Positions 1,966 through 53,401 of a stretch of 64,000 nucleotides of DNA are shown one piece after another. The stretch covers positions 151,777-215,776 of the forward strand of contig JACTUA010000006.1 of NCBI GenBank assembly GCA_015660865.1. Direction: 5' to 3'. Both the position numbers and the translations under genes were made by a program. Position 1 is the stretch's first letter, and the number at the start of each line of letters is the position of its first letter. A model generated the notes under the pieces. The model saw nothing but the letters and a program-made list of their open reading frames with translations, was not told the DNA's origin and did not search any database. The stretch is from Methanomicrobiales archaeon (lineage in GTDB: Archaea; Halobacteriota; Methanomicrobia; Methanomicrobiales; JACTUA01).

Positions 1966-2922
1966 TCAGGGGAAGGGCAGCTCGACCCACTTCCCCCCGG
2001 CCATCGCGAGCCCTGCTATTGCGAGGTCCTGGATCGCGAGCCCGGTCGAGTCAAAGACTGTTATCTCGTCCGGCTTCTTCCTCCCCTTCACCCCGACGAC
2101 CACCTCGCCCAGGGTCCCGGCGATGTCATGGGCATGGAAGAGCCCCTTTGTGATGGGGACGTTGATCTCTCCAGAGTGGATAGCCTGAGGCCGGTCGTCC
2201 ACAAAGACCTTCGCCCTCTTCAGGATGAGGGGATCGAGCTCCTCCTTCCCGGGGGCATCCGCCCCGATGGCGTTGATATGGGTCCCCTCATGAATCCACT
2301 CGTGCATCACGATGGGTTTCCTTGACGGCGTCGTGGTGACCACCACGTCGGCATCGCAGGCCTTCTCGATGGAGGTAGAGGTGCAGGAGTAGTCCCTGAA
2401 CCTGGCGGCGAAGGCGAGGGCATTCTTCTCCTCACGGGACCAGACCCGTATCCCGGTTATCGTGAGCTCCTTCGAGATCGCCTCCACCTGGGACTCCGCC
2501 TGTTTCCCGCTCCCGATGACCCCGAGGATCACCTCCTTCTTCGGGGAGAGGTATTTCGCTGCGATCGCGCCGGCTGCACCGGTCCGCATATCGGTCAGGC
2601 GCGTCGCATTGATGATGGCTTTCGGGATCCCGGTATCCACGTCAAGGATAACCGTGAGGGCCATGACCGTGGGGAGCCCTGCCGCGCGGTTATCGGGGTG
2701 GACGTTCACGATCTTGACCCCCGCAATTCCGAGAGAAGGAACATAGGCGGGCATGGTCCTGAAGTCCCCGTGATCGAAGGTGATGTACACCTTCGGGGGC
2801 ATCTGGACATGCCCCCTCGCATGCTCCCGGAAGACCGCCTCCACGGCCCGGTTGACCTGCTCATAGTTGAGGGTCTCATCGCTGTCATGGTAATAGCGCA
2901 TAGCCGTATCCTCCGCTCTCAT
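1966..2922 (-). CDS. Ornithine cyclodeaminase / mu-crystallin family protein (archaeal alanine dehydrogenase-like)
   Basis: 318 aa with a Rossmann motif (VIGSGKQA) and the typical OCD family stretches RTGAAGAIAAKYL and NAIGADAPGKEELD. The start could instead be the ATG at 2901. Confidence 0.75.
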   Translation of the reverse strand: MRAEDTAMRYYHDSDETLNYEQVNRAVEAVFREHARGHVQMPPKVYITFDHGDFRTMPAYVPSLGIAGVKIVNVHPDNRAAGLPTVMALTVILDVDTGIPKAIINATRLTDMRTGAAGAIAAKYLSPKKEVILGVIGSGKQAESQVEAISKELTITGIRVWSREEKNALAFAARFRDYSCTSTSIEKACDADVVVTTTPSRKPIVMHEWIHEGTHINAIGADAPGKEELDPLILKRAKVFVDDRPQAIHSGEINVPITKGLFHAHDIAGTLGEVVVGVKGRKKPDEITVFDSTGLAIQDLAIAGLAMAGGKWVELPFP

Positions 2923-3077
2923 GAGAAAAGATACTTTTGGAGGGTGGTTCGTGATCAGAAGAAGCTTGCCTGCATTACGTGGACGCGTTCGGTGGCTTCA
3001 AGCCCGGGGCCTCATCATCCCCGATTGTGATAGGCCATGTATTCGGGGAACCACCGGATCAGGAGGTACCCGGAAAT

Positions 3078-3253
3078 GGGGGGGATGCCCGTGCGGCGGG
3101 GGGCGGGTGAGCCCCCTAAGAGCACCCAGAAAAAGGAAGATGCAGATAACTGATTCCCGCTCATCGGCTGACTTTGCAGCCGATTTCCGGACGCTCCTGG
3201 GGGCTGCGCTTCGCTTGCCCCCGCCGCTGCGGCGTCCCCCGAATTGCGATAGC
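3078..3253. repeat. GC-rich extragenic palindromic repeat, copy A (modules in permuted order relative to copies B and C)
   Basis: Positions 3078-3126 (gggggggatgcccgtgcggcggggggcgggtgagccccctaagagcaccc) are the reverse complement of the L module of copies B/C. Positions 3188-3253 (cggacgctcctggggg...gcccccgccgctgcggcgtccccc) are the reverse complement of the R module. An 8-bp hairpin, atcggctg/cagccgat, lies in the spacer at 3163-3184. Confidence 0.8.
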
Positions 3254-3345
3254 CTTGCTACGAGGTTAACAGAGACAATGCGAGATGAAAGTACGCAAAG
3301 GGAAGAATCGCAGTAATTGAAAAAATAGAATAATTCCAGCCGGTT

Positions 3346-30220: not shown

Positions 30221-30392
30221 TGAACTATTATCGCAGTGGGATATATACGTTTTGGTTATTTCATTACCTTTTTGGACTTGTTAATTGAATAATATTAATA
30301 GATAGGAAAACCAGGTATTCAAGTACAGGAGCCGGAGAAGACCCATGGCAAGGGGAATTACGGTCAGGGAAGGGAGGTGAAAAGGAGGGAGG
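30221..30392. repeat. Paralogous intergenic block, copy 1 (upstream of the DUF457-like gene, downstream of mop)
   Basis: By eye it aligns over ~170 bp at roughly 70% identity with 30612-30780. Shared strings include tgaactat, ttatttcattacctt, ttcaagt.caggagc and ggaatta.ggtca. Confidence 0.75.
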
Positions 30393-30611: not shown

Positions 30612-30780
30612 TGAACTATAATCCCAAGAGGTCATATATTTTGCTTATTTCATTACCTTCTTGAATTTGTCAACTGAATGAAACTAATGAATTGGAAAAC
30701 AGGTGTTCAAGTCAGGAGCTAGGGAAGATTCAGGGCTCGGGAATTATGGTCACTGGAATGACGGTAAAAGGAATGGGGGA
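30612..30780. repeat. Paralogous intergenic block, copy 2 (upstream of mop, downstream of hypC)
   Basis: See copy 1. This block starts 5 nt from the mop ATG and fills almost the whole mop-hypC spacer. Confidence 0.75.
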
Positions 30781-31013: not shown

Positions 31014-31042
31014 CCTTCTCTGCCCTCCCACTCTCCGAAAAG

Positions 31043-31127
31043 CGCCGGGGAGGAGATTTGAACTCCCGAGGTGCCAAGCACCAGTGGCTTTCAAGGCCAC
31101 CGCCTTTCCGGACTAGACTACCCCGGC
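31043..31127 (-). tRNA. tRNA-Ser (anticodon UGA), type II with long variable arm
   Basis: Folded manually. Acceptor stem GCCGGGG/CCCCGGC; D stem GTCT/AGGC with GG in the loop; anticodon stem GTGGC/GCCAC with loop CTTGAAA. The variable arm is GGTGC-TTG-GCACC, the T arm is GGGAG-TTCAAAT-CTCCT, and the discriminator is G. Total length is 85 nt, with no encoded CCA. Confidence 0.85.
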
Positions 31128-34647: not shown

Positions 34648-34817
34648 TTGGGCTCTTGGGGGACTTCCGCCCCCGCCGCGGGCATCCCCCGTCGTGTACT
34701 GGGACTCGTGGAGGACGGTGCCCAGGATTTGTTCGATGGCTTCAAGACAGGTCCTATCCCCACGCGGGGGACGCCGAAGAGGCGGGGTGAGCGGAGCGAA
34801 TCCCCCAGGAGCGTCCG
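34648..34817 (+). repeat. GC-rich extragenic palindromic repeat, copy B (L module, spacer, R module)
   Basis: L module: ttgggctcttgggggacttccgcccccgccgcgggcatcccccgtcgtgta. R module: aggtcctatccccacgcgggggacgccgaagaggcggggtgagcggagcgaatcccccaggagcgtccg. The element lies in the spacer between the cobY stop and the start of the TIGR00300 gene. Confidence 0.85.
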
Positions 34818-34855: not shown

Positions 34856-35467
34856 TTACATCAACCTCTTTTCTTTTCCCCGGCACAGCACCCTCCTCAC
34901 CGCCTCGAGATCCTCCTTCGTGTTCACGTTCCGGCCAAGGGCCCGATCATGGAGGAGGAACCGGTATTCTTCCTGTGGTTCCCTGATCCGCTCCCCAAGG
35001 AGGATATTGACACCGATCGGAACCGCCTGGAACCCGTCCACGGATTCCGCGTAATCCGTCCTGCAGCCCGTAGGCTGGCAGAGGCTCCGGGGAACCCAAG
35101 AGGAGAGCGCGGGCATATCCTGCGCGAGGTAGGTTTCCTGTATCTTCTTCACATGCTCAGGCCGGAGGCATGGGATGTCTGCCACCGATGTGAAAAGAGG
35201 GGCGTTGATGCCGAGCTCGGTGACCACTTCTACAATATCCTCCACGTAGCCCCCGCCCGTAGCTTGGTAAAAAGGAATACCCTGTGCCCTGAAGTAGTTC
35301 AGGGTCATGGGGGTGCGATGGGATGACACCACCGTGACCTCGAGCCCTGTAGCGGTGAATGCGTCAATGACCCAGGAGACCATCGGCCTCCCACATATGG
35401 TGACAAGGGGCTTCTCGCCCATCCCCAGCCGGGTTCCCTCCCCTCCGGCCAGGATCAGGGCAAGCAT
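34856..35467 (-). CDS. cobY: Adenosylcobinamide-phosphate guanylyltransferase (archaeal CobY-type NTP transferase)
   Basis: 203 aa: MLALILAGGEGTRLGMGEKPL (nucleotidyltransferase G-loop). It overlaps cobD by 13 nt. Confidence 0.75.
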   Translation of the reverse strand: MLALILAGGEGTRLGMGEKPLVTICGRPMVSWVIDAFTATGLEVTVVSSHRTPMTLNYFRAQGIPFYQATGGGYVEDIVEVVTELGINAPLFTSVADIPCLRPEHVKKIQETYLAQDMPALSSWVPRSLCQPTGCRTDYAESVDGFQAVPIGVNILLGERIREPQEEYRFLLHDRALGRNVNTKEDLEAVRRVLCRGKEKRLM

Positions 35468-42715: not shown

Positions 42716-42889
42716 TTGGGCTCTCGGGGGACTTCCGCCCCCGCTGCGGGCACCCCCCGTCGTGTATAGAGACACATGGTTGGCGGTTTTCTCTGGATGA
42801 TCTCATGCCCTGCGAAAGGTCCTATCCTCACGGAGGGGGACGCCGCAGCGGCGGGGGCGAGCCGGAGGCGACGCCCCCAGGAGCGTCCG
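42716..42889 (+). repeat. GC-rich extragenic palindromic repeat, copy C (L module, spacer, R module)
   Basis: L module: ttgggctctcgggggacttccgcccccgctgcgggcaccccccgtcgtgta. R module: aggtcctatcctcacggagggggacgccgcagcggcgggggcgagccggaggcgacgcccccaggagcgtccg. It lies between the MFS gene stop and the ABC1 kinase gene start. Confidence 0.85.
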
Positions 42890-42910
42890 CAAGATGAGGA
42901 CAAGTTCAAA

Positions 42911-44083
42911 TCAGCCTTCGCCGGATGGAGTTTTCCTTCCCCGCCATGGATAGGGCAGGATGATGAAGAGCGGGATGGCGAGGACCGTGATCAGAAAGAG
43001 GGCCCAGAACGCCCCCGCGAGCCCGACGGTGTCTCCTATCTCCCCGATGAGGGCCACGCCGAGGCCCCCGAACCCCATGGAGAGGCCGAGGAGGAGGCCC
43101 GAGGCGAGCCCGAGGTTCCCGGGGAGGAGCTCGTGGGCGATGGCGAGGGTCACCGAGAAGCTGGACCAGAGGAAGAAGCCGAAGAGCATCAGGCAGGCGA
43201 GGCCAATAAGACCTGGAAGAAGAAGGAACCCGGCGAGGAAGAGGGCGGTTGCGGCCATACCGGCAAGTATGGTCTCCTTCCTGCCCGACCGATCCGAGAC
43301 AGCTCCCCCCAGGACCTGCCCACCGACCCCGGCGAGGAGCGTGAGGGTGAGGAGGGTATTTGCCGTGAGAAGGTCGAATCCCTGCCCGGCGAGGAAGATG
43401 GGTAAGTAGGCGATGGACCCGAAGATCACCATGCCACGGAGGGATGCCCCGGCGACAAGGATGGCGACCGGCTTCCAGACCGCCGGGGGTATCCCAGGCA
43501 TGGTCCCTGTAACAGCCTCTACAGGGCGCGGCGGACGGGGAGGGAGGAGGACGAGGAGGGCCATGGCGATCGCGAGGGCGGGGAGGAACATGAGGAGGAT
43601 CCCCCCCTGCCCCAGGACCTCGATGGCGGCCCCCGCGGCGAGGGGCCCGAGGGCGAACCCCAGGTTCCCCCCGACCACGAAGTAGGAGAGGACCCGGCCC
43701 CGGTTCACGTCGGTGGACTCGCGGCCCGTCAGGGAGAGGGCCACGGGGTGGAAGGCCGCATGCCCGAGGGCCGCGATGCCACAGAAGAGGAGCATGACCC
43801 CGAAACCCGGGGCAACCCCCAGGAGGGAGATGAAGAGGCCGCAGACGAGGATGGAGAGGGATGGCGGGAGTTGCAGTCCCTTCCGGTCGTGAATCCAGCC
43901 GATGCCGGGCTGGGCAAGGGAGGATACGGCATTATACACCGTGACCAGGAGGCCGGCCGCGAGGTACGAGTACCCGAACCGGAGGATGAGAAGAGAGATG
44001 ATCGCGGGAAGTGCGGGGCCGTAGAGATCGGTGACAAGGTGGGCGACGGAGAGGCCCGCGACGGTGCGGGTGGACACCGGCAT
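42911..44083 (-). CDS. MFS transporter
   Basis: 390 aa with about 12 hydrophobic segments and the MFS loop motif GWIHDRKG between TM2 and TM3. Confidence 0.8.
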   Translation of the reverse strand: MPVSTRTVAGLSVAHLVTDLYGPALPAIISLLILRFGYSYLAAGLLVTVYNAVSSLAQPGIGWIHDRKGLQLPPSLSILVCGLFISLLGVAPGFGVMLLFCGIAALGHAAFHPVALSLTGRESTDVNRGRVLSYFVVGGNLGFALGPLAAGAAIEVLGQGGILLMFLPALAIAMALLVLLPPRPPRPVEAVTGTMPGIPPAVWKPVAILVAGASLRGMVIFGSIAYLPIFLAGQGFDLLTANTLLTLTLLAGVGGQVLGGAVSDRSGRKETILAGMAATALFLAGFLLLPGLIGLACLMLFGFFLWSSFSVTLAIAHELLPGNLGLASGLLLGLSMGFGGLGVALIGEIGDTVGLAGAFWALFLITVLAIPLFIILPYPWRGRKTPSGEG

Positions 44084-52732: not shown

Positions 52733-53401
52733 ATGGACACCCAGAGATTCGTGGCTGGTCCCCTATCGATCCTCTGCATCATCGGGCTGGTCATGGGAAC
52801 AGCCAGCGCCGCGGTCATCACATCCACCGATACAGGTACAGGAGCTGCCCATCACCACCTGTCACCCGATGCCATCATCAGCGCCCTTGAACAGAAGGGA
52901 GTGGACGTGAGCGGGGTGAAGACCGCCCTCCAGAACGGAGATGAGGCCGCGGTGAAGGCGTGGCTGGAGAACTACTTCCAGACCCACAAGCCTGAGATAG
53001 CACAAGGTTCCGGTCGCCAGCGTTTTGATCTGACCAATGCCAACCAGCAACAGGAGACCATCACAAAACTCGAAGAGAGAGGAGTTGATGTAACCGAAGT
53101 GAAGGCTGACCTCCAGAAAGGGGACACGGCTGCAGTGAAGGCATGGCTGGAGAACTACTTCCAGACCCACAGGCCTGATACAGCTGGGAAGAACGGGAAC
53201 GAGAGGCTCCAGCTCATCGTCAGCAACCTGGAAAAGAAGGGGGTTGACGTGAGTACGGTGAAGACCGATCTCCAGAACGGGGATATCACCTCAGTGCAAA
53301 CATGGCTCAAATCCTACTTTGATGCCCATAAGGGAGAGATGCCTCGCGGTCACCACACCGGGCATGCCCAGGCTGTAAGCCAGATCGGAACCAACCAGTA
53401 A
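52733..53401 (+). CDS. Secreted protein with three ~42-aa tandem repeats and His-rich flanks
   Basis: The signal peptide is LSILCIIGLVMGTASA. The repeats are at aa 46-87, 107-148 and 158-201 (nt 52868-53335), with consensus LExKGVDVSxVKxDLQNGDxxAVKAWLENYFQTHKP. They are flanked by AAHHH and GHHTGH. Confidence 0.7.
   Translation: MDTQRFVAGPLSILCIIGLVMGTASAAVITSTDTGTGAAHHHLSPDAIISALEQKGVDVSGVKTALQNGDEAAVKAWLENYFQTHKPEIAQGSGRQRFDLTNANQQQETITKLEERGVDVTEVKADLQKGDTAAVKAWLENYFQTHRPDTAGKNGNERLQLIVSNLEKKGVDVSTVKTDLQNGDITSVQTWLKSYFDAHKGEMPRGHHTGHAQAVSQIGTNQ

Follow-up and report, generated by a model that had tools for sequence, protein, structure and literature searches.

The closest described counterparts of the repeats considered here are the REP and BIME sequences of bacteria and the REPINs of Pseudomonas. 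Tagged REPs are known from eight bacterial phyla, and the REP dimers of enterobacteria are heterodimers of units that differ in loop length (PMC3733652). One superfamily, the REPs with a CGTC tag, occurs mostly as head-to-head dimers and has no dedicated transposase that has been found; its members have stems of 8-9 bp that start with A/T pairs, loops of 4-5 nt and a CCA tail, and come from five bacterial phyla (PMC3733652). The RAYT transposases of REP and REPIN repeats, in all their subclasses, have been reported only from Bacteria, and IS200-type TnpA is the sole Y1 subclass in Archaea (PMC6006769), where IS200/IS605 is the most widespread family of insertion sequences (PMC13343696).

We analyzed a 64,000-nt stretch of DNA from a Methanomicrobiales archaeon, hereafter the window, and find in it a family of repeats with many of the properties of these bacterial sequences. 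The reading that we favor, with a probability of roughly 0.6, is that they are non-autonomous, selfish palindromic repeats of the REPIN/MITE type that belong to the Methanoregulaceae. REP/REPIN-type repeats have been described as bacterial, and a large, old and still-turning-over family in a major group of wetland methanogens would extend this biology to archaea. Full-text literature searches turned up no account of repeats of this kind, whether in Methanoregula or in other methanogens, and a survey of archaeal insertion sequences names Methanoregula only for its high IS content (PMC13343696).

A preliminary description of the window had reported three copies of a repeat composed of two distinct modules, L and R, that flank a spacer. 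Conserved GC-rich modules are indeed present at all three sites (copy A, 3078-3253; copy B, 34648-34817; copy C, 42716-42889). A 72-nt left part is common to copies B and C with 85% identity, the right part is common to all three copies and lies in reverse orientation in A, and CCCCCAGGAGCGTCC occurs exactly three times in the window. The division into two kinds of module does not hold, however. When R is reverse-complemented it aligns with L position by position and throughout, and the three L and three rc(R) sequences have the same architecture: GCTC-YY-(R)GGGG, a variable insert, CCCCGC, 2-10 nt, and GGC-R-Y-CCCCC. One pattern fits all six, with six matches in the window against none in 100 shuffles. 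L and R are thus the short and long variants of a single unit, which we call U, in opposite orientations, so that each supposed copy is an inverted pair of U. The unit is 39-56 nt long, with the consensus GCTCYYRGGGG-hairpin-CCCCGC-N-GGCRYCCCCC. Its parts, from 5′ to 3′, are the conserved flank (G)GAC-GCTCYY, a G5/C5 hairpin to which a covarying distal stem may be added, a small GCC/GGC hairpin, and GGC-R-Y-CCCCC. The short variant (U_short, the former L) measures 39-44 nt, and the long variant (U_long, the former R) measures 47-50 nt and carries the extra distal stem on its G5/C5 stem.

The full element is an inverted pair of about 170 nt with the form GGAC-U_long-GATAGG-spacer-rc(U_short)-CCAA (Table 1). 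Elements B and C, read from the minus strand with U_long first, follow the order GGAC-U_long-(G)GATAGGNCC-spacer-(GT)ACACGAC-rc(U_short)-CCAA, as do many elements in related genomes. The spacer had been called non-conserved. It is in fact less conserved than the units, with 60-74% identity between copies and genomes versus 83-94% for U_long and 87-100% for rc(U_short), but it is not wholly unconserved, as (G)GATAGG adjoins U_long and ACACGAC adjoins U_short. The earlier proposal that the two modules pair as a long stem is borne out: whole composites fold as a long imperfect hairpin on both strands, with a z score of about -4.9 for B on either strand, but just -1.4 for C. Outer terminal repeats and a target site duplication were looked for in window-type composites and none were found, the termini being the U units themselves. 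Composites of the OWC MAG lineages likewise lack outer repeats and duplications and end in the units.

Copy A had been thought to carry permuted modules. The stretch 3078-3253 is instead the right end of one element, A1, joined to the left end of another, A2, both on the plus strand. Because copy A is made of parts of two neighboring elements, and because L and rc(R) are one unit, permutation of modules, circular permutation and split genes are all rejected. The left unit of A1 (2981-3022) escaped detection by nhmmer, and we infer a decayed U_long from its surroundings, namely GGACGC, the GATTGTGATAGGCC tail and a spacer homologous to the spacers of two composites in other genomes (L059 and L068; matched loci are given L numbers). 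A2 has a GCGATAG tail after its U_long and possibly a hairpin that closes at GAATCGCAG (about 3305-3313), and solo halves orthologous to it are present at L125, L127 and L128. The back-to-back layout of A1 and A2, with a gap of 67-69 nt (window 3124-3192), recurs at L080:7112-7178, L090:1146-1212 and L120 (about 2500-2570); the gap is constant in length, and its sequence is not conserved between loci. The sequence of element B is identical in six contigs of the same strain, and two Logan contigs end inside its unit, as expected for a multicopy inverted repeat.

Table 1. Repeat elements of the window and their parts.
Feature	Position	Strand	Composition and evidence
Element A1, full composite	2981..3129	+	Tail, spacer and right unit homologous to composites L059 and L068; right unit fits the U pattern
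Parts of A1	2981-3129	+	GGAC 2981-2984; putative decayed U_long 2985-3022; GATTGTGATAGGCC tail 3023-3036; spacer; rc(U_short) 3080-3123; ACCCAG
Short-type U (L of copy A)	3080..3123	-	Pattern match; nhmmer score 23.7
Element A2, half element	3189..3316	+	GGAC; U_long 3193-3240; GAATTGCGATAGCC tail; no right-hand unit
Element B, full composite	34648..34816	-	GGAC; U_long 34766-34812; GCGTGGGGATAGGACC; spacer; GTACACGAC; rc(U_short) 34652-34690; CCAA
Element C, full composite	42716..42888	-	GGAC; U_long 42835-42884; TCCGTGAGGATAGGACC; spacer; ATACACGAC; rc(U_short) 42720-42758; CCAA

All three sites lie between co-directional minus-strand genes and shortly past a stop codon, as first reported; we measure a distance of 22-40 nt (stop at 34856 versus element end at 34816 for B, 42911 versus 42888 for C, and 3346 versus 3316 for A). 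The flanking genes are a UPF0058 gene and an ornithine-cyclodeaminase-type gene at A, an NTP-transferase gene and a TIGR00300 (LOR/SDH-like) gene at B, and an MFS transporter gene and an ABC1/UbiB kinase gene at C, and the window contains housekeeping genes. The ATG at 2901, not the position 2922, is the most likely start of the ornithine-cyclodeaminase-type gene and makes its product 311 aa long like all of its homologues, and the spacer at the A site would then span 2902-3345.

A scan for the U pattern with one genome per species matched at least 112 stretches. Among the matches listed, about 100 belong to MAGs of Methanoregula, Methanoregulaceae or unclassified Methanomicrobiales, which often have several loci each, and a profile search of the matched loci returned 146 units. 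Two complete Methanoregulaceae chromosomes (OY970343.1 and OY970061.1) are also among the genomes with matches. Inverted-dimer composites are present in the window and at L001, L028, L046, L059, L068, L120, L126 and L128, and solo U units are also common. The source organism belongs to this group and is uncultured, and protein homologues that are 97-86% identical to its own come from metagenome assemblies only. Extrapolated from the three sites found in 64 kb, the number per genome may be of the order of one hundred. According to the preliminary description, a repeat confined to these three copies and missing from relatives, or one lying inside conserved coding sequence elsewhere, would have spoken against its proposal. 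Neither situation is encountered, since the family is large and present in relatives.

Gene context was assigned by crude ORF calling for 124 units from methanogen loci, which places 46 in tandem spacers, 27 in convergent spacers and 9 in divergent spacers; ten fall within long ORFs, some of which are probably spurious. Divergent (promoter) spacers are depleted of units, and tandem and convergent spacers are enriched. There is no orientation bias, with 19 of the units in tandem spacers running in the same direction as the genes versus 27 in the opposite direction. A CRISPR-like or integron-like array was rejected as an explanation because the units alternate in orientation, no array exceeds 2-3 elements, and no genes were found to be associated.

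Orthologous sites exhibit high turnover. At the B site, where the window has one composite, a relative with 97% flanking-protein identity (L119) has a remnant and a composite in which another repeat takes the place of the left unit. At 95% identity (L120) there are a collapsed element, a full element and a further remnant, at 89% (L121) there is a long/long composite, and at 86% (L122) the site is empty and holds only a 128-nt spacer. The spacer of the B-site element differs between the window and both L119 and L120 despite near-identical neighboring genes. At the A site the arrangement differs in every relative: those at 96-88% identity have a solo half with or without U_short, some have a full long/long composite, and some have elements that collapsed to remnants of 23 and 53 nt, with both ends fused. 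At the C site of a 97% relative (L119:1480-1530, compared with window 42889-42960), about 200 bp have been deleted between two GGCGGGG microhomologies, a loss that includes the bulk of element C and the final codons of the MFS transporter gene. The A and B sites have each retained an element since relatives at 88-89% flanking-protein identity split off. Because no clean pair of a filled and an empty site was found among close relatives, it is from this turnover that we infer that elements of the window subtype are, or were, mobile themselves. Long palindromes that are unstable, and that are gained and exchanged as well, would be expected to vary in this way.

A second small repeat, (G)AAACCGACCTSGAGCGACGAWGTCGCGAG, which is itself a hairpin, stands in place of the 5′ half of U_long at the B site of two relatives (L119:9620-9665 and L121:1480-1540) and is tandemly doubled in L121.

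Site histories also bear on the idea that these elements serve the host and are kept in place, for example by protecting mRNA 3′ ends, insulating genes or binding proteins of chromatin or topology, which are roles proposed for bacterial REPs. Such a role would accord with the position of elements at 22-40 nt from the preceding stop codon and ahead of the next gene's TATA box, with the enrichment of convergent and tandem spacers and depletion of divergent ones, and with the persistence at the A and B sites. However, orientation, number and completeness vary at each site, one relative lacks an element altogether, and purifying selection against insertions in promoters and genes predicts the same bias of location. 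Moreover, archaeal termination is not known to need hairpins. We consider it unlikely that a host function accounts for the family.

If the elements are selfish palindromic repeats, as we prefer to read them, the propagating form in the window lineage would be the inverted heterodimer of U_long and rc(U_short) with its fast-evolving spacer of about 75 nt, a REPIN-like long hairpin that inserts without target duplication; elements also stand single or back to back. The units would be conserved because they serve as cis-acting sites, perhaps as hairpins in single-stranded or cruciform DNA, and a trans-acting enzyme encoded elsewhere in the genome would recognize them and copy or move the element. 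Instability of the palindrome would give rise to deletions, collapsed remnants and local duplications at orthologous sites, and insertions would survive where they are least harmful, with the spacer free to drift.

The hairpin of the unit is under selection. In 120 distinct units the G5/C5 stem is almost invariant, and its sixth pair (17-40) changes in a compensatory manner (CG 83, GC 9, UA 5, AU 1). The optional distal stem has double changes at four of its five pairs, for example GGCAA/UUGCC versus AGCAC/GUGCU. Across these 120 units, 94% of cells are paired, versus about 50-60% when the partners are slid, and none of 500 shuffles reached the observed covariation score. A lone pair between columns 10 and 57, which joins the base before the neighbor of the G-run to the purine of GGC-R, covaries as well (UA 85, CG 23, other 12), as do the bases that adjoin it (T/T 74, C/C 22), and both couplings recur on differing unit backgrounds. 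A search for compensatory changes, which the preliminary description had recommended, thus gave a positive result in the hairpin, with the caveat that the counts are inflated and the statistics overstate independence because the copies are related.

In Methanoregula, U is the first part of a core in which it is followed by three others: a long variable hairpin (GCGATAGTGCCGTATTACC...GGTAATAC..CATCGCAA), a second hairpin (GCGCCCCGTCCCCC-TC-GGGGGACTGGTGGCGC) and AAGAGGGGGGC, for a combined length of 123-190 nt. This core is enclosed by terminal inverted repeats of two unrelated kinds, GGCTCTGTAGAAA or GGTGATTGT. Elements with the termini GGCTCTGTAGAAATCC / GGATTTCTACAGAGCC are 184-260 bp long, and those with the termini GGTGATTGT.. 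/ ..ATCACC, which form two subtypes, are 273-330 bp long. All of these elements, spanning 184-330 bp, are multicopy and contain no ORF, and they are flanked by 8-bp AT-rich direct duplications (for example GAAAATTC, AATTTCCA, TATTTTTT and TTATAATT). From the terminal repeats and the duplications it follows that the core travels in classical miniature transposons of the cut-and-paste type. No full-length parent insertion sequence was seen in the loci, where all pairs of terminal repeats lie 184-506 bp apart and enclose no transposase gene. The GGCTCT-type ends with 8-bp duplications recall the ISL3 family. In one MITE type (L022:2140-2380, also L091, L044 and L007), an A/T-rich stretch (CGATAAACC.., AAAAATTTCATTA) precedes the core and the core ends in GGGGGGCTGCATTTTTTG, so an RNA of about 170 nt could be transcribed.

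The suggestion that the repeat is a MITE therefore fits the Methanoregula carriers of the core, which have terminal inverted repeats and 8-bp duplications, but not the window copies, which have neither. Window-type elements share inverted termini with MITEs, formed in their case by the U units themselves, but lack separate terminal repeats and a target site duplication. It is also unusual for MITEs that the same internal core is common to types with unrelated termini.

The unit extends beyond the methanogens. At eight loci in gut Bacteroidales MAGs and on one viral contig of IMG/VR, GCTCTTGGGGGCGGTTTAGGCCGCCCCCGCCGCTCGGGCATCCCCC is followed by TCCAGAAGGAGAGAGGAA, an 18-nt conserved tail (L017, L026, L027, L030, L098, L099, L104 and L123:10-55). 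The Bacteroidales contigs have 40-56% G+C and are up to 120 kb long. Outside the distal stem their unit is the same as many Methanoregula units, and a 46-nt module is nearly identical across the two domains. Most of these units lie 7-80 nt from a contig end, and GCACTTCGTTTTGGAATCT is found about 60-100 nt beyond the unit in several loci. An IS3-family element (L098:5199-6709) and an IS110-family transposase gene (L104:148-1125; Pfam DEDD_Tnp_IS110) both adjoin the 18-nt tail, and at the same end. Members of the IS3 and IS110 families target bacterial REPs, and the placement of these two suggests that the Bacteroidales unit may likewise be an insertion hot spot. On a circular-looking viral contig with 58% G+C, a U-like match (L124:1840-1882) is followed by GGCATCCCCCCCGGGGATGCC and a T-run, with the look of a bacterial intrinsic terminator; this match may represent a third lineage or a chance resemblance.

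The near-identity of U in Bacteroidales and its retention in unrelated MITEs suggest that the unit itself is what is selected. Against our preferred reading, a simple parasite would not need a core so widely retained, in three MITE types, in several genera and even in Bacteroidales, and the core could have a function. It is conceivable that U is the recognition module of an unrecognized mobilization system, or a structured nucleic-acid device, common to the Methanoregulaceae and gut Bacteroidales. This proposal draws on the 46-nt near-identity between domains, on the occurrence of U in at least three MITE types with unrelated ends, on the lone covarying pair and on the use of the unit as an IS3/IS110 landing site in Bacteroidales, and we put it forward as a speculative alternative of low probability. 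If true, archaea would have their first REP-like system, and a new enzyme or RNA function would underlie it.

Alternatively, U and the downstream helices of the core may be a structured noncoding RNA family or a cis-acting RNA, such as a ribozyme or a protein-binding RNA, that MITEs have spread passively. Conservation of the core in three MITE types, several genera and two domains would be explained in this way, as would the covariation of the stems and of the lone pair that flanks both hairpins. In addition, 5′ CUCUU can pair with 3′ AAGAG to give a closed multi-helix fold, and the core of one MITE type ends in GGGGGGCUGCAUUUUUU, an oligo-T of the archaeal-terminating kind. Yet Rfam has no match even at E<=10, where searches with copy B and the full Methanoregula core returned nothing relevant, and an element of the window lineage contains U together with its reverse complement, so that any transcript would be a plain long duplex from either strand. 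Orientation relative to flanking genes is unbiased, copies freely decay, collapse and are deleted, and G·U versus A·C asymmetry is weak, with 8 wobble pairs in 850 and slightly better folding of the complementary strand. We accordingly doubt that the family is an RNA family, and a structured small RNA or terminator, which the preliminary description had listed among its alternatives, is not supported as the primary explanation.

For the window itself, Rfam 15 at the gathering threshold returned two tRNAs only, and ARAGORN two ordinary tRNAs only. Self-cleaving ribozymes (HDV-like, twister and hammerhead) were rejected because the order of helices does not fit and no Rfam model matches. The strand asymmetry of wobble pairs was also set aside as a discriminator between RNA and DNA, such pairs being too few.

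It counts against our preferred reading, a selfish repeat that is mobilized in trans, that window-type elements have neither terminal inverted repeats outside U nor a target site duplication, and that no linked transposase or nuclease was found among the 150 nearest ORFs (Pfam), between distant pairs of units or, in the case of transposases, among the window ORFs. Clustering of neighbors revealed no protein family that recurs beside units. A phmmer search of about 0.9 Mb of loci with an IS608 TnpA sequence as the query detected no TnpA of the IS200 type. A RAYT- or IS200-like transposase, which the preliminary description had proposed to look for, thus did not emerge from these loci, and what stands of the original comparison with REP/BIME is the behavior of the repeat rather than membership in a RAYT system. 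As in REP/BIME and Pseudomonas REPINs, the unit is palindromic with conserved unpaired flanks, inverted dimers form a long hairpin and pair a long with a short unit, clusters occur occasionally, units are more conserved than the linker, and location is extragenic with a bias to gene 3′ ends and no target duplication. Depletion from promoter spacers and high turnover also accord with such behavior. The differences are that U is larger and more complex than a REP or REPIN unit (two hairpins and three G5/C5 runs), that the spacer between units, at about 75 nt, is much longer, and that the host is archaeal, whereas reports of RAYTs are confined to Bacteria (PMC6006769) and the loci yielded none. 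The GTAG tag 5′ of the stem is absent, the flank of U being (G)GAC-GCTCYY. U elements resemble CGTC-tagged REPs (PMC3733652) in their mostly head-to-head dimers and in the lack of a dedicated transposase found, and the outer end of U carries GACG, the complement of the CGTC tag, but U does not follow the stem, loop and tail rules of those REPs.

A further possibility is that the units are the ends of an IS200/IS605-type or other HUH single-strand transposon, akin to the PATEs of haloarchaea, with the hairpin as the binding site and the flanking nucleotides as a guide/cleavage pair. The hairpin is conserved, and the covarying lone pair joins the base just 5′ of the hairpins with a base 3′ of them, an arrangement that resembles the pairing of guide and cleavage site in IS608. 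Like PATEs and other IS200/IS605 derivatives of haloarchaea, the elements are archaeal, non-coding and hairpin-bearing, and those of the window type lack a target site duplication. The family in question is also the most widespread in archaea (PMC13343696), and its type of TnpA is the only archaeal Y1 subclass (PMC6006769). However, IS200/IS605 elements and PATEs have both end hairpins on the same strand, whereas U units are inverted. The fixed short target and tnpB-type linkage of PATEs were not seen for U elements either: the left flanks are pyrimidine-rich with no fixed motif or conserved target tetranucleotide, and neither TnpA nor TnpB was found at any locus. Among the traits of IS200/IS605 derivatives, only the absence of a duplication fits. 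The terminal inverted repeats and 8-bp duplications of the Methanoregula carriers point to a DDE enzyme in those elements. We judge an HUH origin the least probable of the readings considered here.

Whatever moves them, these repeats have practical consequences. U units break short-read assemblies and so affect the contiguity of MAGs, and U elements generate deletions that clip gene ends, as at the 3′ end of the MFS transporter gene at the C site of a close relative. Because of them, closely related strains also have hypervariable intergenic regions, a property that can be used for strain typing.

Three other repeats of the window are separate from U. An AT-rich direct repeat of 67 nt has two copies that are 79% identical (30245-30311 and 30634-30700), in a long intergenic region beside tRNA-Ser (31042-31127). 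An inverted repeat of 25 nt, 92% complementary and with TGGCAC motifs (TGGCACGAATGGCACAAGTGGCACG), has its arms at 61083-61107 and 61196-61220, 88 nt apart. Finally, a 116-nt repeat is present three times at 52886-53343, with 70-79% identity and a spacing of 159-183 nt, inside the ORF 52733-53398, and probably corresponds to a repeated protein domain.
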